Source of the DNA: a virus
DNA length: 64,000 bases
Strand: one strand, 5' to 3'
Virus record (IMG/VR): IMGVR_UViG_3300026549_000005
Span: 3,003-67,002 of that record
Shown here: in pieces, positions 399 to 27,920 of the stretch
Position numbering within the stretch: the stretch's first letter is position 1
Layout of the letters: every line of letters begins with the position of its first letter
Translations under genes and position numbers: made by a program
Notes under the pieces: model-generated
The model's input: the letters and a program-made list of their open reading frames with translations, nothing else
The model's database searches: none
Told to the model about the DNA's origin: nothing

Positions 399-481
399 AT
401 ATATCAACGTTGAATAGTTCAACGGAAATCTTCAACCTTAAATAAGGGAAATTCAGTTGTTAAGTAATTCTTTACAACTGA

Positions 482-1126
482 TTAAGCCATGCAACCGCAT
501 CCACCACAATTACAGAATGGACTTGTGCCAGCATTGTAGGTCATGCCGTTTGGATAGCGAACAACACCATTCAAAGCCTGAGCCAACTGCAACTGATTGA
601 TTTGATTCTGCATATCTGCCATGCGGTTTCCTGCAATAGCATCAAGAATCTTCTGTGTCTGAGCAGTTGTGTTTGCATTGATGCTTGCCGTGTTCATTGC
701 ATTGTTGTAATTTACACCGTCAATTGCTCTGAGTGTGTTACAACAACACTGATTCTGATTTGCAAGAGCCTCAGCCTGAGCAACACTTACACCAGCAATA
801 TCCCTTGCAAGTTCTGAATACTTATCATTCAGGGCATTAAGGGTATCATGGAAAGTCTGATTTGTTGCACTTACTGATTGTGCAGTTCCACTTGTTACGG
901 CTGAAAGAATATCTCTTGTCTGAGCCTGAAGATTCTGATTATCAAAACCACGGTTTACATCAGCCTGAATAGCATTTGCATTACCATTGTTTCCACCGAA
1001 TCCGCCAAAACCACTTCCACCGAAAAGGAACATGGCAAGAATCAAGAATCCCCAAAAACCAGCACCACCACCAAAACCACTATCACCACCCATAATAACG
1101 GGTGTTCCGTTAGTTTCAATAGCCAT
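482..1126 (-). CDS. Gly-rich membrane-anchored protein with Cys-rich C-terminus, function unknown
   Basis: 214-aa ORF; GGGAGFWGFLILAMFLFGGSGFGGFGG hydrophobic/Gly segment, Q/N/A-rich helical middle with CCC, C-terminal CNCGGCGC; AAGGAGG RBS. Confidence 0.6.
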   Translation of the reverse strand: MAIETNGTPVIMGGDSGFGGGAGFWGFLILAMFLFGGSGFGGFGGNNGNANAIQADVNRGFDNQNLQAQTRDILSAVTSGTAQSVSATNQTFHDTLNALNDKYSELARDIAGVSVAQAEALANQNQCCCNTLRAIDGVNYNNAMNTASINANTTAQTQKILDAIAGNRMADMQNQINQLQLAQALNGVVRYPNGMTYNAGTSPFCNCGGCGCMA

Positions 1127-1172
1127 AGTTTTACCTCCTTTATATTAAGTTTATTTATTAAGACCAACGGTC

Positions 1173-1400
1173 TTATAGTTTTATGCCGAATTGATTGGCA
1201 AAACTATTCAAGTCAATTCCACGTTCTTTAGCAATGTTTTGAGCCATTTCTTTTAATTGTATTTCATTTTTCCCCTGAATCATTTGCTGAACCTGATTGA
1301 ACATTTGAGGATTTTGGCTTTTCATTTTTTCTAACATTTGTTGCTGAACCATCCCCATCGGATTTTTCATTGCTTGCATTGCTTGAAATGGATTTATCAT
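1173..1400 (-). CDS. Q/M-rich small protein (75 aa)
   Basis: ATG 1400 five nt after GGAGG (the track start at 1412 is TTG); overlaps the 3' end of the upstream ORF out of frame. Confidence 0.5.
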   Translation of the reverse strand: MINPFQAMQAMKNPMGMVQQQMLEKMKSQNPQMFNQVQQMIQGKNEIQLKEMAQNIAKERGIDLNSFANQFGIKL

Positions 1401-1794
1401 ATAAGCCTCCAATTATGTTTTCTATGTTGGATAATCTTTGATTTATTTCAGCCATTGGGTCTGATTGTTTTTCAGGAGTTACCTGCTCCTGAACGGTGTA
1501 GGTATAAAAGTCTGACTTCCCGTTGCTCGTGTTGAGTTGTTTCATGTAAATCTTGCCATTACCCGTATCTAAGAAGAAATACATTGTATTTGGGTCAACG
1601 GGAAAACCTTTTGCCTCATCAACACTTCCAACCTGCCTTACAAAGAATTGAGGTTGATTATTTTGTGGATATGGGTTGAATTGTGCTTGTGGCGGTTGCA
1701 TTTGATTCATCTGATTAAGTTGATTTTGAATCATTGCCTGCTGAGCCATAAGTTGATTACGCTGATAATCAAGCATTGGATTAAAGTTATTCAT
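1264..1794 (-). CDS. Q/N-rich protein (176 aa), function unknown
   Basis: ORF 1264..1809 trimmed to ATG 1794 just after the upstream stop; N-terminal Q/N/M/P-rich region; last ~45 aa are out-of-frame overlap with 1173..1400. Confidence 0.5.
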   Translation of the reverse strand: MNNFNPMLDYQRNQLMAQQAMIQNQLNQMNQMQPPQAQFNPYPQNNQPQFFVRQVGSVDEAKGFPVDPNTMYFFLDTGNGKIYMKQLNTSNGKSDFYTYTVQEQVTPEKQSDPMAEINQRLSNIENIIGGLYDKSISSNASNEKSDGDGSATNVRKNEKPKSSNVQSGSANDSGEK

Positions 1795-1795
1795 T

Positions 1796-1987
1796 TTATT
1801 TACCTTCAAAAATAAGTTTTAATTCTTCAGTAAGTTGCAAGGGTTCTATTTCATTCTGCCTTGCATAATCAGCACCACAAGTAATTCCATGTGTGAGCAT
1901 TACCTTTAATTTTTCCTTATCGTTTGGTGATAAAGTTTTAATAAAATTAATTGCTATTTGCCTAACTTCCATAATGCAATAATACAT
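1796..1987 (-). CDS. hypothetical protein
   Basis: 63-aa ORF, first gene of the leftward cluster; no clear RBS. Confidence 0.4.
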   Translation of the reverse strand: MYYCIMEVRQIAINFIKTLSPNDKEKLKVMLTHGITCGADYARQNEIEPLQLTEELKLIFEGK

Positions 1988-2053
1988 GTAATTTAATTTT
2001 TATAAGTTTATAAAAATAACACAAAAAGTTTATAAATAATTTATATAAACTAC

Positions 2054-2082
2054 TTGACTTTTTATATAAATTAGTTTAATAT
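2054..2082 (+). promoter_or_regulatory. sigma-70-like early promoter P1 (TTGACT-17-TAATAT)
   Basis: Member of a 5-copy conserved motif; followed by leader hairpin GCAGG(2094-2098)/CCTGC(2106-2110), then AAGGAG and ATG 2126. Confidence 0.6.
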
Positions 2083-2125
2083 AATAAACGTAAGCAGGAA
2101 AACAACCTGCAAAGGAGAATGAACC

Positions 2126-2458
2126 ATGGAAAAGAAAATTGCATATGAAAGAATGGGAAAATTTGGAAAGCCTGAATATTTGATTCCACTGAAGTGTTTG
2201 CCTCTTGTTCAGAAAAAGGAAAGTGAAAAGGCATATTGCTGTGGTGAATATACAGGATTCACTTACAAAGACGGCAATCCACAGATTGATATTTTTGGTT
2301 GGATTCCAAAATCTCAGCTGGTTGAGATTGAGGGTGAAAAATATATCCCTGCTTGGATTCCTGATAATTGGAGAATTACTCACTTGCAGTTCACCAAGTG
2401 GATAAATGAAGAATATTGGCGACATGACTGTGGTTGGGAAGTTAGAAAATTGGCATAG
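2126..2458 (+). CDS. hypothetical protein
   Basis: 110-aa ORF with AAGGAG RBS, first gene after P1. Confidence 0.6.
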   Translation: MEKKIAYERMGKFGKPEYLIPLKCLPLVQKKESEKAYCCGEYTGFTYKDGNPQIDIFGWIPKSQLVEIEGEKYIPAWIPDNWRITHLQFTKWINEEYWRHDCGWEVRKLA

Positions 2459-2515
2459 TGGGATATTGCAGGCGATTTTCAAGCCTGCAATCCTATAATA
2501 AAAGCGAGGTGTGAA

Positions 2516-2752
2516 ATGAAAACGATTGACCCACATTCACTTTTGAAAGATACACCGAGAATTATTGAAAATTGTGGTGTAGTGGGAGACTTGTTTCAAA
2601 TTTGGAAAAAACTTATGAGTGAAAAAACAGATTCAAGATTTAATGAATTTGATGCTTTTGTTGCAGGATATTTCATGGGAACAAATTCAAATTTGCGTGA
2701 AAAATATATGAAATTAAAACCAAGAGAAGAATTTGATTTGAAATTTCTATAA
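2516..2752 (+). CDS. hypothetical protein
   Basis: 78-aa ORF with GAGGTG RBS. Confidence 0.6.
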   Translation: MKTIDPHSLLKDTPRIIENCGVVGDLFQIWKKLMSEKTDSRFNEFDAFVAGYFMGTNSNLREKYMKLKPREEFDLKFL

Positions 2753-2772
2753 TTTAAGTGTTGGAGGAAAAT

Positions 2773-2952
2773 ATGATTAAATTTGAAAATAATTTTGTTG
2801 TAACAACGAAAACTAAATTATTTGTTTATCGTGATGAAAAATGTAACTATCTTATCGGTTGTGCGGGTGTGAAAAACCCAAAAGATTTTGATTTTAATGT
2901 TCTTTACAAGATTGCTTTACACAAATCAGGTTCAACTATTCAGGTGGCTTAA
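2773..2952 (+). CDS. hypothetical protein
   Basis: ORF 2758..2952 trimmed to ATG 2773, five nt after GGAGG. Confidence 0.5.
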   Translation: MIKFENNFVVTTKTKLFVYRDEKCNYLIGCAGVKNPKDFDFNVLYKIALHKSGSTIQVA

Positions 2953-3375
2953 ATGAAAGTACAGATTAAACTTATTAACGGTGGAAAACTACCTGAGTTT
3001 AAAACAGATGGTGCAGTTTGTGCTGATTGTTATGCAAGATGTAAAGAACCCATTGAAATTAAACCAAATGAACGTAAATTAATTCCTTTAGGTTTTGCCG
3101 TTGAACTTCCAAAAGGGTATGAAATGGTCATAAGACCGAGAAGTAGTATGACTAAGAATAAAATTGATTCAGGAATCGGCACTATTGATTGGGATTATAG
3201 AGGTGAGGTTATGGCTTGTCTTATCAATAATCTTGATAAAGCAATTTCAGTTGAAGATGGCACAAGAATTTGTCAATGTGCAATAAGAGAAGTTCCTAAA
3301 ATTGAATTTGAAGTTGTTGATGAACTTTCAGAAACAATTCGAGGTGCAGGCGGTTTTGGTAGTACGGGAAAATAA
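2953..3375 (+). CDS. dut: dUTP pyrophosphatase (trimeric dUTPase)
   Basis: Motifs IRPRSS, GTIDWDYRGEV and RGAGGFGSTGK. Confidence 0.9.
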   Translation: MKVQIKLINGGKLPEFKTDGAVCADCYARCKEPIEIKPNERKLIPLGFAVELPKGYEMVIRPRSSMTKNKIDSGIGTIDWDYRGEVMACLINNLDKAISVEDGTRICQCAIREVPKIEFEVVDELSETIRGAGGFGSTGK

Positions 3376-3376
3376 T

Positions 3377-3586
3377 ATGAGCATTGAAGAACAATATACA
3401 ATGCAAGCAATTCAGCAAATTGCTAAAAAAATTAATAATTTTACATTGCGTGATTATTTTGCAGGACAAGCACTTGCAGGCATGGGTGAATACCTGATGC
3501 AAAACCGTGAAAACTTAAATGAAGTTGCTGAATCTTGTTACAAAATTGCAGACGTTATGGTGGAATATAACAAGTTAAAAAAGTAA
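3377..3586 (+). CDS. hypothetical protein
   Basis: ATG 3377 two nt after the dut stop; 69 aa. Confidence 0.6.
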   Translation: MSIEEQYTMQAIQQIAKKINNFTLRDYFAGQALAGMGEYLMQNRENLNEVAESCYKIADVMVEYNKLKK

Positions 3587-3602
3587 TTCATACATTCTCC
3601 TT

Positions 3603-3633
3603 AGACCTGAGTTATCGTTGATAATTCAGGTCT
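3603..3633. terminator. bidirectional hairpin terminator between convergent genes
   Basis: Stem agacctga/tcaggtct; T-run on the plus strand and A-run upstream. Confidence 0.6.
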
Positions 3634-3636
3634 TTT

Positions 3637-3879
3637 TTATTCATCTAATTCAAGAATTTTTACTATTTTAATTCTTATTATTTTAAGTTCATTATTTACA
3701 ACCATTTTACAAACACATAATGAATCAGCGATAAAATCAATGTTTTGTTTCTTTATATAAAACATCTCAAATATTTTTTGTTGCCTTTCAGATAGCACAA
3801 TTTCATTATTAATTTTATCAATATCTTTTTTAACTGCTTTCTTAAAAAAATTATTTATGTTTTTTATTATTTTTGACAT
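3637..3879 (-). CDS. sigma-70 region-4-like / ArpU-RinA-type late transcription regulator candidate
   Basis: LSERQQKIFEMFYIKKQNIDFIADSLCVCKMVVNNELKIIRIKI resembles a sigma region-4 HTH; start trimmed to ATG 3879 after AGGAGCAGG. Confidence 0.5.
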   Translation of the reverse strand: MSKIIKNINNFFKKAVKKDIDKINNEIVLSERQQKIFEMFYIKKQNIDFIADSLCVCKMVVNNELKIIRIKIVKILELDE

Positions 3880-4019
3880 TCCTGCTCCTACTAACAGATA
3901 GAATTTTATTTCCATCAGTCCTTATAGAAACAGTGTTAGATATAGTTCTTTTAATTTTACTTTTATCTTTGGGTGAAATACTTTTACTCACCTTCATTTT
4001 AACACCCATATTTTACACC

Positions 4020-4391
4020 TTATTTTGTAATTGATAAATTACCATTGTTTTCAGAATTATTATCTGTAATCATTTCAACATTCGAGTTGAAATCTGTATT
4101 TGATATAAAATCAAGCATCTTTTCAGTATTCTGAACTGTGCAATCTTTTAAGAATTTCTGATTTACAAGACTTAATCCAAAAGAACCTATAATTACAACT
4201 AAAAGTAATATAAAAAGTGATATTGAAATAAACTTCAGGAATTTTCTTTGTTCCTTAACATCAGATAAAATATCTTCAAGAAGTGAAATATGGGCAGTTT
4301 TATTGGATTCAATTTCCCTTTTCAATTGTTGCATTTGTTTTCCTGCCTCTTCAGCAACTTTTTCACTGATTTCAATATCAATGTTGTTCAT
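4020..4391 (-). CDS. XhlA-like lysis-associated membrane protein candidate
   Basis: N-terminal coiled coil followed by the TM segment FISISLFILLLVVIIGSFGLSLV; sits in the lysis cassette. Confidence 0.4.
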   Translation of the reverse strand: MNNIDIEISEKVAEEAGKQMQQLKREIESNKTAHISLLEDILSDVKEQRKFLKFISISLFILLLVVIIGSFGLSLVNQKFLKDCTVQNTEKMLDFISNTDFNSNVEMITDNNSENNGNLSITK

Positions 4392-21264: not shown

Positions 21265-22233
21265 TTACAGTGTATGTACAAGTTTAACCATACCAATCTT
21301 CTTAATATCAGATACACGATTCCAATTTGTACCAACTGCAAGTTCTGCATCTGAAGGTGTTGGTCCAGTGATAGTTGCACCACCAACCCAAGAAATTCCC
21401 TTTGGATGAAGAACCTTAGCCTGACGGTTAATCAGGTAATCAGTTGAACCAAGTGAATCACGGTCTGTTTCAACCTGAGTAAGGTCAATTGGTGTACCAA
21501 TACCACGCTGAATAGCACCACGAGCAAGAAGATATGTTGTATATTTTGGTTTTTCTCCTTTTGTATCAACGGGTGCTGAATCATCACATACAACACGATA
21601 ACCAAGATAAGTTGGAATTGTAATCTTGCTTTCAGCAACGGGAATAAACTGAATTACATTCTGTTTCTGCAATTCAGTAAATGTTGCAGAGTGCATATAA
21701 ATCATTGAAAGAAGGTCGCTGGCATCACCCATCAACTGCTTAGCATCAAGAACTGCATTTGCTGAAATTGCACTTGCACTTTCAGCGGAAATATCCTTTA
21801 CAAGACCTGACATACTTGCTGAGGCAAATACACCATTAAGGATAGACATGATGTTAGATTTTTCATCACGAACCCACCAATCAGCAACACGGCTTGCAAT
21901 TGCTTTCATCGGGTCGTCACCTGCAAGAGCACCTGCAAGTTCATGAGCACCCCAAGCATTAGCACGAATAAGCAAAGTCGCCAATTCAGATTTGCTTGTG
22001 ATGTTGTTTACTGTGATAGGGTTAGTATCATCAAGAACCTGCGATTTACCACCGAGGTCATTCCACTTTGGCATTGTCAAAATTGTACCACCACCCGTAA
22101 TAAGACGGTTAAGTTCAGGGTTATTTTCAACAACACCCGCATTCATAATTTCACTTTTCTCAGTTGTTTTATCAATAACATACTGAGCAAAGAGTTCAGG
22201 CTGAATTACATCAGAAATTTTAGTTGCACCCAT
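21265..22233 (-). CDS. major capsid protein
   Basis: 322 aa, directly downstream of the scaffold gene with a strong RBS; position-based plus typical N-terminus. Confidence 0.75.
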   Translation of the reverse strand: MGATKISDVIQPELFAQYVIDKTTEKSEIMNAGVVENNPELNRLITGGGTILTMPKWNDLGGKSQVLDDTNPITVNNITSKSELATLLIRANAWGAHELAGALAGDDPMKAIASRVADWWVRDEKSNIMSILNGVFASASMSGLVKDISAESASAISANAVLDAKQLMGDASDLLSMIYMHSATFTELQKQNVIQFIPVAESKITIPTYLGYRVVCDDSAPVDTKGEKPKYTTYLLARGAIQRGIGTPIDLTQVETDRDSLGSTDYLINRQAKVLHPKGISWVGGATITGPTPSDAELAVGTNWNRVSDIKKIGMVKLVHTL

Positions 22234-23033: not shown

Positions 23034-23219
23034 TTATTTTATTTCATCATTTTTTATTACAGTGCCTTGCCGTATCTCAACTTGAAAAGATGTTTTACAA
23101 TGCCTGCAATATATCTCATTTATCACCACTGATTTATCAGTAAGTTTTAATAATGGCTTATTGCACTTCTTACATCTAAACCAATTAATATTATCATTCA
23201 TAAATACATAATATAACAT
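23034..23219 (-). CDS. Com-like zinc-finger protein
   Basis: FRCKKCNKPLLKL...EIYCRHCK resembles the phage Mu Com CxxC..CxxC finger; start uncertain (ATG 23219 or 23201). Confidence 0.5.
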   Translation of the reverse strand: MLYYVFMNDNINWFRCKKCNKPLLKLTDKSVVINEIYCRHCKTSFQVEIRQGTVIKNDEIK

Positions 23220-23241: not shown

Positions 23242-25134
23242 TTATTTTACAACTGTATTTATCCATTGTGCATAACTCATACTGGCAGGCACTTCATACC
23301 ATTCACCAGCCCCATCTTCCCTTGCTATTCTTTCAGATTCTTCAAACATTTCATCAATTTCATCAGGTTCAAAATATGGAATTGTGGTACATCTGCAATT
23401 ACTTGACAAATACCCATTGACGATGTATAAAGTAGATGAGGAGGAAACATCGTAAATATGCCCGCTAAAATCACTACACTCAATGTTGACAACATCATCG
23501 AATTGTATAATTCGGGAAAAAGCGTCAATGAACTTTCCAAAATCTTTAATGTCGCAAGAACCGTCATTTACAACAGACTTAAAAAGTCGGGAGTTGTAAT
23601 TAGAACGCAAAAGGAAGCGAATCAACTCATGATGAGTAAAAGAACCAGAGAAGAAAACATTAAGAACACTATCAACGCTCATAATGCCGTCAAAGGCAAG
23701 TGCTACACACGTAAGGAACTCTGCTATCGTGCTATTTCTAGGGAAAAATCTTTTAAGCGTTTTGTCAGTTTTTACGAATCTGAAATTGCTAAAGAACTTT
23801 CTAAAAGAGGGATTGATTATATTCCGCAAAAAGCCGTTGATATTTACAATGTCGATTTTTGCGTTTTCGGCAACATCGCCTTTGAGGTCTTTGGCGGAGG
23901 CTGGCATACTTCGGGAAAACATAAAGCCAAATTTTTTGAAAGAAGCAAAAAGATTTTCGATAGTGGGTACACCATTGTTATATGCTGGATTACTAACAAC
24001 ACCTATTTCGTTCCAACCGCAATAGCGGATTACCTTGTCACCCTTAACGATATTCTTTGCTCTGACCCAACCTCTAGATGTAAGCATTATGTGATTCGGG
24101 GTGACGGTAAAACTTCCACCATTGGAAGTAAAAACCTTGAATATTTTTCCTGAATATTCAGATTTCATTATTTTTTCTGCGTCTGGTGATAAAACAATGT
24201 TATCACCAGTAACGCAATTAGGGTGCATTGGCGGGTAATTTACACCCGTCACTGCCGTTTTTCTTGAATAATACTTTCCATCCCAATATCCACATTTTGA
24301 ACAAGTATGAGCATCAAGTGTTGCAACAAACTGTATTTCATCAATACCATGTTCTTTGTAACTTTCCATTGTTGCAGACTCTGTTATATGAGCGGATTCC
24401 GTTATGCATAATCTTTCAGCGTTATAAAATGAAGTTCCGTAATTCTTTGCAATTTCACGAGCAATGACTACAGAGTTCTGCCCTCTCGCTATTCCTTGCA
24501 GGAAAGTGTTGCTTATGTTATCAAGCAGTTTATTTTTATCTTTCCAAATACGGTCTGAATAGTTTTCACCCAACCATCTTTCATTTACAAGATATTCAAC
24601 TTTATTTGCAGGAATAGCACTATAACCCGCACTGAATCCAAGTGTTTTATCAATATCAAAACTTGTGTAAGAATGTATATTTTCACATAATTTGGATAAT
24701 TCATCATTAAACTTTATTTCCTGCCTGAATCCCAAATCAATTAGATTGTATCTGAGTGAATTCTTTAATCCTTCCAACCTTGACATATAGGCTCTTGCTG
24801 ACTGTAACCTTAATTCTTCTTTGTATTTACGCAACAGTTCAACATTGATTTTTCCCTGATTATCTTTAGCAAGTTTATTCACAAGATTGTAATAATTGGC
24901 AATTTCAATTTTGGCTGATTTCAATTCATCAGGATTTAATCTTTTCTGTACATCAGCGATTGAAAGACCATTCATTCCCGCATATCTGCCATAAAAAGCA
25001 TCAATTTCTTTCTGAATGTTTTTAAGTGAGATTTCATATAATCTTTTACATTCGCTTTTAAGAATTGCAATGGATTTATCACCCATTCTTTCCTTTATCT
25101 TGCCACGGTCTTTCCAATAAATTTCGCTATCCAT
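23242..25134 (-). CDS. minor head protein (SPP1 gp7 / Mu F-like) interrupted by an intein
   Basis: Family motif PPxHPNCRCT is split as PPMHPN|C...SSN|CRCTTIPY; position between the portal region and the scaffold gene. Confidence 0.85.
   Translation of the reverse strand: MDSEIYWKDRGKIKERMGDKSIAILKSECKRLYEISLKNIQKEIDAFYGRYAGMNGLSIADVQKRLNPDELKSAKIEIANYYNLVNKLAKDNQGKINVELLRKYKEELRLQSARAYMSRLEGLKNSLRYNLIDLGFRQEIKFNDELSKLCENIHSYTSFDIDKTLGFSAGYSAIPANKVEYLVNERWLGENYSDRIWKDKNKLLDNISNTFLQGIARGQNSVVIAREIAKNYGTSFYNAERLCITESAHITESATMESYKEHGIDEIQFVATLDAHTCSKCGYWDGKYYSRKTAVTGVNYPPMHPNCVTGDNIVLSPDAEKIMKSEYSGKIFKVFTSNGGSFTVTPNHIMLTSRGWVRAKNIVKGDKVIRYCGWNEIGVVSNPAYNNGVPTIENLFASFKKFGFMFSRSMPASAKDLKGDVAENAKIDIVNINGFLRNIINPSFRKFFSNFRFVKTDKTLKRFFPRNSTIAEFLTCVALAFDGIMSVDSVLNVFFSGSFTHHELIRFLLRSNYNSRLFKSVVNDGSCDIKDFGKFIDAFSRIIQFDDVVNIECSDFSGHIYDVSSSSTLYIVNGYLSSNCRCTTIPYFEPDEIDEMFEESERIAREDGAGEWYEVPASMSYAQWINTVVK
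23398..24216 (-). mobile_element. intein (273 aa) in the minor head protein
   Basis: Starts CVTGDNIV (block A), has TVTPNH (block B), ends GHIYDV...YIVNGYLSSN followed by Cys +1; boundaries checked codon by codon. Confidence 0.8.
23458..24153 (+). CDS. Vsr/DUF559-like (PD-(D/E)xK) homing endonuclease with N-terminal HTH, antisense inside the intein
   Basis: HTH SVNELSKIFNVARTVIYNRLKKSG; nuclease core ESEIAKEL..IYNVDF..NIAFEVFGGGWH; GAGGAGGA 12 nt upstream of the ATG; no TTA/CTA/TCA codons. Confidence 0.7.
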   Translation: MPAKITTLNVDNIIELYNSGKSVNELSKIFNVARTVIYNRLKKSGVVIRTQKEANQLMMSKRTREENIKNTINAHNAVKGKCYTRKELCYRAISREKSFKRFVSFYESEIAKELSKRGIDYIPQKAVDIYNVDFCVFGNIAFEVFGGGWHTSGKHKAKFFERSKKIFDSGYTIVICWITNNTYFVPTAIADYLVTLNDILCSDPTSRCKHYVIRGDGKTSTIGSKNLEYFS

Positions 25135-25216: not shown

Positions 25217-25558
25217 TTATTTATTCTTGTTTGCAACCGCTGATATAATCAAACCTGCGATAATTGCAACAAAACCAAATACACTTGAAATGATTGTTGC
25301 AACCATTGATTCAGCAATAACACCACCAAATCCAGCGATAAAAGCACCAACACCCACAAGCACAAGTGATAGAACCGCCATCCAAGTTTTAGCAGTTTTA
25401 TCCCGCTTATCCCAAAGATTAGAACAAACAAGTCCTGCACCAAACATTGTTGAGGCAAATCCCAACAAATCAGAAAGTTCCCATTTAGTGAAGTAAGAAA
25501 TTACAACACCAACCACGATAAAAAGAATTCCAATTACTGTAAGCCAATTCTTTTTCAT
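25217..25558 (-). CDS. small four-TM membrane protein (moron-like, in the head module)
   Basis: 113 aa, four hydrophobic segments, AAGGAGG RBS, own downstream terminator. Confidence 0.6.
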   Translation of the reverse strand: MKKNWLTVIGILFIVVGVVISYFTKWELSDLLGFASTMFGAGLVCSNLWDKRDKTAKTWMAVLSLVLVGVGAFIAGFGGVIAESMVATIISSVFGFVAIIAGLIISAVANKNK

Positions 25559-25652: not shown

Positions 25653-26339
25653 CTATTTGCTAATCCAACTTGAACTTCTTGTTGTTTTTCGTGTATATGT
25701 TTTTCCATTGTATGTAAAAGATAGCGATTTATTATCTATTGCTTCTTTTATTGCAGATGTCAAATCTCTTGATTCTTTTGATTTATTATTAGCATCACTT
25801 TTTTGTTTTGCTTTAATAATTAAATCAGATTTCATTCCACGAATTTTTGAAACTTTTTCTTGTGCTTTTTCAGAGCCAGAGACACGTTTTGCAACACCTG
25901 CAACAGTCTGTGAGATATTAGATGCCTGTGCTTTAAGTGCCTGTGTATTTAAGTCTTTCAAATCTTTTATATATTGAGATTTTTCTGATGAAGATATATT
26001 TAGGGAATTTATCTGACTGATTTCTCTTTCAAATTCTCTTTTTATCGCATCTCCTGCTTCATACATATAACTTGTATTATTTGCTTTTCTTATTAACTCT
26101 GTATCAAGTCCATATTCCTTCATTCTCGCTTGAATCTGTTTCACTGCTTCATTGATGACAGGAATATCTTTGTTAGTAATTTCAATACTCGCATTATTGG
26201 ATATTGTCTTTAAGAGATTTTTTGCTTCTGTAACATTTGTAGCATTATGAAAAAGAGAACTGTTTCCTCCACCAATACTTCCGCCAACACCAATTGATGA
26301 ACCCGTTTTCTGCAATGGACTTGTTCTACTTTTACCCAC
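25653..26339 (-). CDS. hypothetical protein flanked by direct repeats
   Basis: 228 aa, GTG start 6 nt after GGAGG; K/S-rich helical composition. Confidence 0.6.
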   Translation of the reverse strand: MGKSRTSPLQKTGSSIGVGGSIGGGNSSLFHNATNVTEAKNLLKTISNNASIEITNKDIPVINEAVKQIQARMKEYGLDTELIRKANNTSYMYEAGDAIKREFEREISQINSLNISSSEKSQYIKDLKDLNTQALKAQASNISQTVAGVAKRVSGSEKAQEKVSKIRGMKSDLIIKAKQKSDANNKSKESRDLTSAIKEAIDNKSLSFTYNGKTYTRKTTRSSSWISK

Positions 26340-26354
26340 GATTTACCTCCATTA

Positions 26355-26388
26355 TGTAACAGCCTACAACGGTCACTCGGTTTTGTCA
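26355..26388. repeat. 34-nt direct repeat, copy 2 (overlaps the portal stop codon)
   Basis: tgtaacagcctacaacggtcactcggttttgtca. Confidence 0.8.
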
Positions 26389-27920
26389 ACCTTTTCCTGC
26401 TCACCCTTTTCTTCAGGTTCTTCAGGCTCGAATTCACCGCCATTTTCAATGTTTGTTCTTTCAGCAAAATTGAACAATTCATTCTGCTGATTTTCTTTCT
26501 GCTCTTCCTTGATTCTTTCTTCTTCCATATCCACATCTTGAACAACGGGATTAAACTCAAGCAGGGTTCTTTTTGAAACACCCGTTTGTCCGAGTTTTAC
26601 TGTATCTTCAATTTGTGCTGATTGATTAATCATCATAGAGCGGTCAAGTTCAACACGCACATTATATAATTGTGCCTCTGCAAAACTACCCTTGTGTGAA
26701 AATTCATACCACTTATCAAAGAAGTATTTCAAATCATCAATAAAATCCTGAAAGTGCCTTTCCAATCCATCCATGTAAGTATCAAGATTCTGATAAAGTG
26801 ATTTAATAACCAACTGATTAGGATTACCACCAAATCTTGAATCTTCATAATCGATTCCATAACCAAATTTAATTATATCCCGCCTTAAACTTTCCATTTT
26901 CTGCAAGTGTGCCTGAATTGCAGTTTGTGCCTGAATATAGTGTGCATCACCATCAGTATCAAGCGACACTGTACGGGTCATTTTTGCAAGTTCCCTTGCC
27001 TCAAGCAAATCCCTAACATCAGGTGAAACACCCTTAATAATCAGCAGAGGGTCGAGGTCGTCAACCAAGCCATCAACTGATTTACTGCTTAATTCATCAT
27101 AAGCATCAATTTCAGGCTTAATGAATGAAAGCAGGGTCTTTTCATCATCCGTACCCTTAAAACAGATAAAAGGTATTTTATCCCAACTTAATTTTTCATC
27201 ACCCTGAGTTAAATGGGAATGCACAAAATTACCTTCTTCATCTTTTGTTACCGCCTCTTCAGTGTAACTATTGGAAACATTAAAAAGAATTCTTTCTTTA
27301 TCATCCCAATATTCTGCATATTCTTTAGTTGTTGGATTTATTGATTCGTAAACATTTACAAAATAGTGATAAACCAATTTATTCAAATCAGTGTGCCGTC
27401 TATCTTTCCATTCAGGATAAATATATTGTGCAGGAACTTCAGTTAGTTTTAATTTGCCATCTTCATCAATCCAAACATAGCACCAAGTTAAACCGTGATT
27501 TACTGCCTGCCCTGCAATGTTTCTTGACATTTTAAATAAAATATCATCACAAAATGCTTTCCATTCCTTGCCATATCCATCTTCTTTAAGGTCAACTTCC
27601 TGCTCTTTATCGGTTGAAAGTTTGATAATAAATGATTTTGCAAATCCATAATCCTGCTTTTGTTCAACAAGCATTCTTAAAAAGTTAGATGCAATCTTAG
27701 CATTATAAGCATTCGGATTATCAATAGCCTTTCTGTCTTTATCATAATAAACACGGCTTTTCTTGTTTATCTCTTCATTTTCCGTTTCAAAATATTTATC
27801 AGCCTCATTCATTTGGGCAATCTTAGGGTTTCCCTTGTTTTTTGAAACAATGATTTGTGTTATTTCTTTAGGGGATAAAGTTTTTGAAAACACCACATTT
27901 TCAATCTTCTGCTCTTCCAT
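26373..27920 (-). CDS. portal protein
   Basis: 515 aa, downstream of the terminase genes, acidic C-terminal tail; SPP1 gp6-like size and position. Confidence 0.8.
   Translation of the reverse strand: MEEQKIENVVFSKTLSPKEITQIIVSKNKGNPKIAQMNEADKYFETENEEINKKSRVYYDKDRKAIDNPNAYNAKIASNFLRMLVEQKQDYGFAKSFIIKLSTDKEQEVDLKEDGYGKEWKAFCDDILFKMSRNIAGQAVNHGLTWCYVWIDEDGKLKLTEVPAQYIYPEWKDRRHTDLNKLVYHYFVNVYESINPTTKEYAEYWDDKERILFNVSNSYTEEAVTKDEEGNFVHSHLTQGDEKLSWDKIPFICFKGTDDEKTLLSFIKPEIDAYDELSSKSVDGLVDDLDPLLIIKGVSPDVRDLLEARELAKMTRTVSLDTDGDAHYIQAQTAIQAHLQKMESLRRDIIKFGYGIDYEDSRFGGNPNQLVIKSLYQNLDTYMDGLERHFQDFIDDLKYFFDKWYEFSHKGSFAEAQLYNVRVELDRSMMINQSAQIEDTVKLGQTGVSKRTLLEFNPVVQDVDMEEERIKEEQKENQQNELFNFAERTNIENGGEFEPEEPEEKGEQEKVDKTE

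Follow-up and report, generated by a model that had tools for sequence, protein, structure and literature searches.

In fractured genes the two halves of a split intein lie on either side of a free-standing gene for a Vsr-like (EDxHD) endonuclease, and Dassa et al. (2009, PMC2677866) accounted for them with a model in which a free-standing endonuclease invades an intein. The prototype of the EDxHD homing endonucleases is I-Bth0305I (Taylor et al. 2011, PMC3239194; PDB 3r3p). Gosselin, Arsenault and Gogarten (bioRxiv 10.1101/2025.01.02.630785) reported VSR-like endonucleases encoded antisense within contiguous inteins of actinophage minor capsid and other proteins. According to that preprint the hosts of these non-canonical endonucleases include minor capsid proteins, the in-frame centre of the intein lacks a recognisable fold, the antisense product matches Vsr (1CW0) and 3R3P, and a free-standing endonuclease is again proposed to have invaded the intein; it also cites Gorbalenya (1998) for antisense LAGLIDADG genes in inteins. 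The title of a 2026 preprint calls the endonuclease of the cyanobacterial dnaX intein out-of-frame. We present here an analysis of a locus of this type in a 64,000 nucleotide stretch of viral DNA (IMG/VR record IMGVR_UViG_3300026549_000005, positions 3,003 to 67,002; hereafter the window), in which the gene for a MuF/SPP1-gp7-type minor head protein contains an uninterrupted intein, the centre of which is read on the opposite strand as a putative homing-endonuclease gene. We consider it highly probable that this is a mobile intein built of two partners on opposite strands of the same DNA.

The minus-strand open reading frame (ORF) specifies a 630 amino acid (aa) precursor, of which aa 206–307 match Phage_Mu_F in Pfam (8e-14); its PHROG call is minor head protein (3e-84). 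A first-pass annotation, made from the letters of the sequence and a list of its ORFs, had recognized an intein splitting the HPN-CRC motif of this protein, with Hint blocks at both ends, and the present analysis bears this out. The boundaries read PPMHPN/CVTGDNIV and NGYLSSN/CRC. Intein_splicing (PF14890) gives a split match across aa 317–573, and the intein motifs are present: Cys1, block B TPNH, block F GHIYD and a terminal Ser-Asn, followed by Cys+1. Among 36 intein homologues C1, N41, H42, D256, S272 and N273 are invariant and T39 is nearly so. In the AlphaFold2 model of the intein (predicted TM-score, pTM, 0.81 overall) the pLDDT (predicted local distance difference test) is 84–96 at the two ends and an uneven 45–85 in the centre, and a Foldseek search with this model returned inteins and hedgehog Hint domains only (probability 1.0, E 1e-5 to 1e-2). 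Related contigs carry proteins of 357 aa, 70–87% identical to the exteins, and 357 aa is exactly what remains of 630 when the 273 aa intein is subtracted. At the insertion point related locus L007 (related loci are designated by L numbers) reads PPMHPN/CRCTT and L009 PPLHPQ/CRCTT, exactly the 273 aa being absent from both, so that the comparison with phages lacking the insert, which had been suggested as a check, places the intein precisely. The intact catalytic residues and these intein-less alleles together suggest that the precursor splices. A group I intron was ruled out since the insert is in frame, begins with Cys1 and ends at Asn/Cys, and shows Hint blocks at either end. Nor is this a fractured gene with a split intein, which would appear as two ORFs: the minus ORF is a single frame of 630 aa without an internal stop.

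The Pfam scan found no match in the minus-frame centre, in agreement with the initial impression that it holds no LAGLIDADG, HNH or GIY motif. AlphaFold places helices at about intein residues 81–210 of this filler (pLDDT 65–85). They may be an artefact in which the covariation of the other strand's protein is mirrored in the alignment and, because a real protein on that strand would be mirrored in this way, the model confidence of the minus centre is counted here neither for nor against any reading.

The plus-strand ORF had been described at first reading as a helix-turn-helix (HTH) protein with a DUF559/Vsr-like nuclease core, and the HTH and Vsr-like parts of that description stand. Pfam reports HTH_7, HTH_Tnp_IS630 and HTH_38 together with an MTES_1575 nuclease match (2.7e-6), and the closest families of the protein are MTES_1575 and the EDxHD family of I-Bth0305I. 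The AlphaFold2 model has a mean pLDDT of 87 (83–98 in the core), and its top fold match in the PDB is the I-Bth0305I catalytic domain 3r3p (probability 1.0, E 3.8e-3, TM 0.60 on the target), the fold alignment having 18% identity. A profile of 26 homologues also matches 3r3p (E 1.2e-3) as well as resolvase and transposase HTH structures. Fold matches among viral proteins (BFVD) are annotated as DNA mismatch, Vsr, DUF559 or homing endonuclease; one of them, A7KV39 (266 aa, E 1.1e-6), has no name in the tables and is taken by us to be I-Bth0305I itself. The crystal construct of I-Bth0305I carries the substitutions D196A and H213A (PMC3239194). In the profile alignment D133 and H150 of the window protein face these two alanines, and both the catalytic Asp and the catalytic His therefore appear to be in place. 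E107, D133 and E143 are invariant among the 26 homologues and H150 is nearly so; the last acidic residue of the motif is placed without confidence. Public data list homologues of 50–94% identity as called genes. In phage Snoke the antisense ORF is 35% identical over the full length (E 5e-41) and keeps the MPAKI start, whereas the minus centres of the two phages hardly align. The window protein has one HTH module; most of its relatives have two.

As first reported, both ORFs are in exact antisense register: their low codon coordinates are 1 modulo 3, and each codon, when reverse-complemented, gives a codon of the opposite ORF. With this register a stop in either frame reads TTA, CTA or TCA in the opposite one, and both ORFs can therefore stay open by synonymous choice of Leu and Ser codons alone. 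These three codons make up 4.48% of the 16,293 codons of the 62 other ORFs in the window. There are none among the 231 codons of the plus ORF, and none among the overlapping minus codons save the one which mirrors the plus stop, an exception to the original statement that neither strand uses them. From the codon usage of the window a run of 231 codons would lack all three with a probability of 2.5e-5; with the Leu and Ser counts of each ORF taken as given, the figure becomes 1.2e-5 (plus) and 1.1e-6 (minus). No 231-codon window, of 4,528 slid along the other genes, has fewer than three stop-mirror codons, the longest run without one elsewhere being 147 codons, and the remainder of the MuF ORF contains 24 in 398. 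About 730 runs start in the window, so that about 0.02 runs of this length would be expected by chance. The suggested test of codon avoidance against the other genes thus gives a significant result. Two further details were also confirmed: the 11 Leu codons of the endonuclease are CTT (seven), CTC (three) and TTG (one), and the G+C content at third codon positions is 0.40 in this segment, the background value being 0.26.

Long spurious ORFs come most commonly from in-register antisense frames, and the plus ORF might accordingly be a chance shadow of a genuine in-frame intein domain, the minus centre being the real one. The moderate AlphaFold2 confidence of that centre (pLDDT 45–85, with helices) might be cited in favour of this, as might the long antisense ORFs which arise by chance in GC-rich relatives, where that of L013 is open for 733 codons; in the AT-rich genome considered here, however, the corresponding chance is about 2.5e-5. 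The comparison of strands bears directly on the question. Codons were threaded onto protein alignments of six loci and the gene was split into regions (the locus pairs are not independent). In the exteins and the non-overlapped parts of the Hint domain conservation favours the minus translation, the differences being most frequent at its third positions. In the centre (aa 376–545) it is the plus translation which is the more conserved in 15 of 15 pairs, with identities for plus and minus of 0.73 and 0.60, 0.60 and 0.46, and 0.35 and 0.14, and differences peak at minus codon position 1, which is the plus third position. The plus-strand protein is thus the conserved product in the centre of the intein, and selection switches strand there. 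Between the two regimes, at aa 328–375, both translations are 60–79% identical among the Bacillota-type loci, second-position differences are low (0.06–0.15) and those at positions 1 and 3 are about equal: this stretch of about 48 codons codes on both strands. Moreover, the plus protein matches nucleases and HTH proteins by Pfam, PDB profile and fold whereas the minus centre matches none, its start codon is conserved, and free-standing homologous genes exist outside any intein. The proposal of a shadow ORF is therefore already contradicted, and we find it scarcely credible.

The preferred reading, a real endonuclease gene on the plus strand, also has to explain how that gene is started. The Shine-Dalgarno-like sequence GAGGAGGA, noted in the first-pass annotation and confirmed to lie 12 nt upstream of the ATG, is the antisense of the Ser codons which follow in block F (DVSSSS), and the ATG itself is the complement of the block F His codon (SGHIYD). 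A purine-rich GGAG-type site is found at the same aligned place in L003–L006 and L008. Further upstream the −10-like TATAAA, which has TTGACA 17 nt before it, corresponds on the opposite strand to the Thr-Leu-Tyr codons in block G; TATAA(A/T) is kept at the aligned position in all six Bacillota-type loci, and the Leu is always TTA. Overlap with the splicing domain occurs at both ends of the plus ORF, over minus aa 328–375 (about 48 codons) and aa 546–559 (14 codons), and in the former the C-terminal helix and strand of the nuclease are paired with the block B strands of the Hint domain. The idea that an antisense gene sits in the endonuclease slot of the intein accordingly holds for its position in the centre, and requires amendment in that the gene does not simply fill the slot. 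It is conceivable, though we would put it tentatively, that the two partners are locked together more tightly than has been described so far, the start signals lying within Hint F and G codons and some 48 codons encoding folded parts of both proteins. If so, neither gene could drift freely without harming the other, and convergent transcription of the endonuclease gene could also tune synthesis of the MuF precursor. The features of the locus are collected in Table 1.

Table 1. Coordinates of the minor head gene, its intein and the antisense endonuclease gene within the window
Feature	Position	Strand	Basis
MuF/SPP1-gp7-type minor head (head morphogenesis) precursor ORF, 630 aa, intein included	23242..25134	-	ORF list, Pfam, PHROG
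N-extein, aa 1-306, ending ...PPMHPN	24217..25134	-	alignment with intein-less alleles L007 and L009
Class-1 intein, aa 307-579, 273 aa	23398..24216	-	precise absence from 357-aa alleles; Pfam Intein_splicing; invariant residues; AlphaFold2 model
Hint N-terminal lobe, intein aa 1-69 (protein aa 307-375)	24010..24216	-	pLDDT 84-94; HMM of the block matches 78 of 80 related loci
Central intein filler, protein aa 376-545 (minus-strand translation of endonuclease gene)	23500..24009	-	no recognisable domain, no Pfam match
Hint C-terminal lobe, protein aa 546-579, blocks F and G	23398..23499	-	pLDDT 83-96; invariant residues; HMM matches in related loci
C-extein, aa 580-630 (CRCTTIPY...), and stop codon	23242..23397	-	alignment with intein-less alleles
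Putative homing-endonuclease gene, 231 aa: HTH domain, helical linker, Vsr-like/EDxHD nuclease domain	23458..24153	+	ORF, Pfam, homologues, AlphaFold2, fold matches
Endonuclease HTH DNA-binding module, aa 10-43	23485..23586	+	Pfam, three helices in model, profile matches
Nuclease core, aa 105-215 (Asp133 at 23854-23856, His150 at 23905-23907)	23770..24102	+	3r3p profile alignment, pLDDT 83-98
Doubly coding segment: endonuclease aa 185-231 and stop (plus), Hint block B region aa 328-375 (minus)	24010..24153	both	codon-position differences
Shine-Dalgarno-like GAGGAGGA (putative)	23438..23445	+	12 nt before ATG
Promoter-like TTGACA (23403-23408), 17 nt, TATAAA (23426-23431) (putative)	23403..23431	+	read from the sequence by eye

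The genome of the window phage has 33% GC, and its minus strand carries nearly all genes. Its terminase shares at most 46% identity with its counterparts in Bacillus and Streptococcus phages, and a scan of the window for tRNAs found none. The MuF gene lies between the portal gene (26373..27920) and the major capsid gene (21265..22233), in a head module which looks normal: terminase, portal, MuF, a scaffold-like gene and major capsid. Three small minus-strand genes flank it in what is, between portal and capsid, an unusual place for such genes. That at 23034..23219 specifies a 61 aa protein with a CxxC...CxxC zinc ribbon and a weak Elf1-like match, that at 25217..25558 a 113 aa protein whose hydrophobic sequence suggests a membrane protein, and that at 25653..26339 a 228 aa Ser/Lys-rich protein without a family match. 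Many MuF relatives, intein-bearing or not, terminate in toxin-type domains (ADPrib_exo_Tox PF03496, PF18810, PF06414), among them homologues P0053, P0055–P0059, P0086–P0131 and the protein of L003 (3380..5611); the window MuF has a short C-extein and no toxin-type domain.

A megablast search with the gene against 50,697 phage records gave no match. Using tblastn the plus ORF matched 129 phage records, and in those examined the match was antisense to a MuF or head-morphogenesis gene and in the same register, with the exception of Acinetobacter phage IME285. A scan of IMG/VR with the single protein returned nothing, and a scan with the profile gave 477 confirmed relatives; a profile search among protein clusters yielded 1,282 representatives at E ≤ 1e-30, and 7,202 when the threshold was E ≤ 1e-10. 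Eighty IMG/VR loci were fetched and surveyed, being metagenomic contigs which may contain errors (L056 and L030 are cases in point). In 78 of the 80 no stop interrupts the opposite in-register frame anywhere along the endonuclease match, and this frame carries Hint-N and/or Hint-C (both in 74), so that the minus frame, as first reported for the window, is free of stops in its relatives too; the MuF core is mostly in the same open frame as the Hint blocks in these 78 loci. The same arrangement and register are found in Firmicutes prophages and in Jersey-like Salmonella, Gordonia, Mycobacterium, Pseudomonas, Vibrio, Haemophilus and Helicobacter phages. Homologous prophages occur in Massilioclostridium coli and Bavariicoccus seileri. 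In Gordonia phages Vivi2, Fosterous and Angelicage tblastn matched the antisense strand of MuF (33–34% identity, E 1e-28 to 3e-24), and likewise in Mycobacterium phage Sejanus and Rhodococcus phage REQ3; these matches place the window endonuclease in the same element family as the actinophage cases. Very little of this is visible in public annotation. In dozens of Salmonella, Escherichia and Shigella phages the label on the intein-bearing MuF gene is hypothetical, structural, head morphogenesis or "NAD+--asparagine ADP-ribosyltransferase"; among these records the intein is annotated only in Snoke, and in a few (PK1, PK2, vB_StyS-sam) the antisense ORF appears as a hypothetical protein. The gene table of L005 lists the endonuclease only, with no MuF gene.

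Two relatives are free-standing. In Acinetobacter phage vB_AbaM_IME285 (L019, MH853786) a 297 aa homologue (33% identity, E 3e-18) encoded at 455..1348 (+) is convergent with an intein-less Phage_Mu_F gene at 1342..2118 (-), their ends overlapping by 7 nt; this endonuclease family is thus not confined to inteins, and already occurs next to that target gene and on its opposite strand. In L080 (IMG/VR 2925083658_000003) the homologue at 2234..3199 (+) is a 321 aa protein with an extra N-terminal Cys-rich segment, and it converges with a 10 nt overlap upon a gene at 3190..4044 (-). The 284 aa product of the latter has no intein, and its C-terminal HPGCHPRGRC looks MuF-like; purpose-built MuF and Hint models did not match in the in-register open stretch of L080 to which they were applied.

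Comparison of the endonuclease with its genetic surroundings gives the pattern of a homing element. Against L003–L005 the endonuclease is 55–58% identical, and the portal protein and N-extein only 21–25% and 23–29% respectively. In L008 the relation is reversed, the exteins being 93–94% and the intein 60–77% identical. In L006 the intein is 95% identical, and the flank diverges once some 20 codons of the C-extein are passed. A patch of 30 codons (24235..24324, minus codons ca. 271–300), adjoining the insertion site on its 5' side, has 56–73% DNA identity to L007 and L009, against mostly 82–100% elsewhere in the MuF gene; here the window protein reads TCSKCGYWDGKYYSRKTAVTG, the protein of L008 reads TCPICGGMDNQRYARKEAMTG, and those of L007 and L009 are close variants of the latter. 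The patch may be a co-conversion tract or may reflect divergence of the target site. Homing is what these patterns, taken from sequence comparison, suggest.

The plus gene could also be expressed and yet serve the phage, as a DNA-binding regulator, as a nuclease directed against competing phages, or through antisense transcription which times MuF. It does have an HTH domain, it runs opposite to almost every other gene in the window, so that its transcription would collide with late transcription, and the Jersey-like copies have been kept open despite loss of the catalytic His; in addition, the title of a bioRxiv paper (PMC10055350) places nuclease genes at the boundaries of genetic exchange between phages. 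A sporadic distribution, precise intein-less alleles and conservation above that of the backbone are, however, the classical signature of homing, and I-Bth0305I, which of the characterised proteins is the closest relative and is likewise laid out as HTH plus Vsr, has been proven to be a homing endonuclease. We regard a role in the service of the phage as very unlikely.

Several observations weigh against a functional mobile element of the kind we favour. On the side of the protein families, Intein_splicing scores 31–33 bits, below its curated cut-off of 35.8, MTES_1575 scores 27.8 bits against a cut-off of 38.2, and the DUF559 model, invoked in the first description of the plus ORF, is not matched by it in the Pfam scan. 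The penultimate residue of the intein is Ser272, invariant in the family, and not the usual His of block G. Functional inteins without a penultimate His are known, and the Ser is therefore no bar to counting the insert among the inteins. A scan for consensus promoters and terminators listed no plus-strand site just upstream of the endonuclease ORF and no terminator, a result which as regards TTGACA-17-TATAAA is attributed to the scan's rule of a T at position 6 of the hexamer; the spacing of 12–13 nt from the Shine-Dalgarno-like sequence to the ATG is long. The comparison with L006, the closest locus at about 95% nucleotide identity, does not separate the strands, there being 15 plus-synonymous/minus-nonsynonymous substitutions against 10 of the reverse kind (counts of 15, 10 and 5 in all), and only the more distant comparisons do so. 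Plus third positions are also less diverged (0.33–0.46) than those of a control portal pair at similar protein identity (0.64), and the minus filler may thus be constrained too, or the element may simply be younger than its hosts. In the control portal pair L003–L005 sense and shadow identities are 0.51 and 0.28, against 0.60 and 0.46 in the intein centre; the excess shadow identity of the filler could equally reflect a younger, mobile element. Finally, since the endonuclease has decayed in some relatives the activity of the window copy cannot be assumed.

This last point leads to the most serious of the alternatives, namely that the architecture is real and the endonuclease of the window a relic, still open and recognisable, no longer expressed or active, and carried by a vertically inherited intein as a harmless passenger. 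Decay is indeed seen elsewhere. In L030 (2501..3193, +) the endonuclease has one in-frame stop and the intein frame is still open; in L008, an ENA contig, ATA replaces the endonuclease ATG, a change coupled to His→Tyr in block F of the intein; and the catalytic His is replaced by Ala (GGGWA) in the Jersey-like and Kagunavirus copies (L001/L002, phages Snoke and PK1). A regular-expression census of this His over the 80 loci proved unreliable and was dropped. In L056 (IMG/VR 3300045988_159774, 1880..4155) both frames are broken by an indel lying at the catalytic EVFGGGWH motif, which leaves MuF as a 422 aa ORF (N-extein and Hint-N) and a 302 aa ORF (Hint-C and C-extein) and cuts the endonuclease at 185 aa; this may be a pseudogene, may come from an error of assembly, or may be a natural step on the way to a fractured gene and split intein. 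The lack of a clear excess of plus-synonymous changes between the window and L006 would suit a relic, as would the mostly vertical patterns given for VSR-like cases in bioRxiv 10.1101/2025.01.02.630785. On the other hand the window copy retains its ATG, the Shine-Dalgarno-like sequence, E107, D133, E143, H150 and its full length, an unselected antisense ORF of 231 codons in 33% GC DNA should gain stops quickly, and both the presence/absence polymorphism among near-identical exteins and the divergent flank by the insertion site suggest recent movement. On balance we think a relic unlikely.

If a mobile intein with two functional partners is accepted, its operation might be pictured as follows. 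Late transcription of the head module on the minus strand would yield the 630 aa MuF precursor, in which the Hint domain of the intein would fold from both ends (aa 307–375 and 546–579). The roughly 170 residues between the lobes, being the reverse-strand translation of another gene, would need only to be free of stops and tolerated as a loop. Self-excision of the intein would restore the HPN-CRC motif in a 357 aa MuF with the expected junction peptide ...PPMHPNCRCTTIPY..., and the 231 aa homing endonuclease would be expressed through signals of its own, which lie within the antisense of Hint blocks F and G. The endonuclease would presumably cut intein-less MuF alleles of co-infecting phages or prophages near HPN/CRC, and recombinational repair would then copy in the intein together with the endonuclease gene. 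The element probably originated when a free-standing endonuclease gene, convergent with MuF and just downstream of it, a position which persists in two phages, entered the loop of a mini-intein. Expression, splicing and cleavage are for the genes of the window predictions from their sequence. As far as sequence allows, the points on which the first-pass interpretation might have failed came out in its favour, with Hint similarity at both ends, HTH and nuclease homology in the plus ORF, an open minus frame and significant codon avoidance, and that interpretation is supported.

It is rare for two real protein-coding genes of bacteria or phages to overlap in antisense for some 700 nt, and the low GC of this genome makes the signature, an absence of stop-mirror codons and a change of the selected strand, easy to measure. 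The family is a large one (477 IMG/VR relatives, ca. 1,300 clusters at E ≤ 1e-30) distributed over phages of Bacillota, Proteobacteria, Actinobacteria and Campylobacterota, and genome annotation usually reports one of the two genes only, these MuF genes being listed without note of intein or endonuclease. With the forms found at this one target gene, direct tests become possible of how fractured genes arise and of the "splicing first, endonuclease later" model of intein evolution. If the partners are indeed as tightly locked as suggested above, the free-standing, embedded, broken and decayed forms would make up a complete natural series for the gain of endonucleases by inteins and for gene fracturing.

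Free-standing phage homing endonuclease genes situated beside their target gene, as in T4, are known from intronless homing. The endonuclease genes of L019 and L080, convergent with the end of an intein-less MuF gene with overlaps of 7–10 nt, resemble these; the window gene differs in lying inside the intein of the target gene and not beside the gene. With I-Bth0305I the window protein shares an N-terminal HTH/NUMOD-type DNA-binding region and a C-terminal Vsr-like nuclease, Asp196 and His213 of the former corresponding to D133 and H150, though in sequence the two are only marginally similar (E 1.2e-3 by profile, 18% identical residues in the fold alignment); I-Bth0305I is encoded on the sense strand of a group I intron in recA, whereas the window gene is antisense within an intein. 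As in the fractured genes of Dassa et al., a member of the Vsr-like (EDxHD) family is tied to an intein in a phage gene. Unlike them, the host gene and intein are contiguous here, with no stop and restart, and the endonuclease gene is antisense and overlaps the intein coding sequence instead of lying between two genes; the two ORFs produced by an indel in L056 may show how the fractured state is naturally reached, or may stem from faulty assembly. The Synechocystis DnaX intein with its antisense LAGLIDADG gene (Gorbalenya 1998, as cited in the 2025 preprint) is likewise a contiguous intein with the endonuclease in another frame, and differs in endonuclease family, host gene and organism.

The closest parallel is with the cases of Gosselin et al., and the belief expressed in the first-pass annotation, that no contiguous intein read through an antisense endonuclease gene was known, is overturned by them: the window locus is a further example of a rare architecture known since 2025 and is not unprecedented. 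The portions of the preprint consulted contain no codon-register argument, stop-mirror avoidance or switch of the selected strand, nor any overlap with the splicing domain, start signals in blocks F and G or wide spread outside actinophages, all of which may be reported elsewhere. As far as those portions go, both have an uninterrupted intein ORF, a Vsr-like ORF on the opposite strand of its centre and a minor capsid (MuF) protein as host. The window copy differs in belonging to an uncultured Bacillota-type phage of 33% GC and not to an actinophage and, by comparison with what those portions describe, in that its endonuclease ORF overlaps the splicing domain by about 48 and 14 codons and has its candidate start signals inside blocks F and G.

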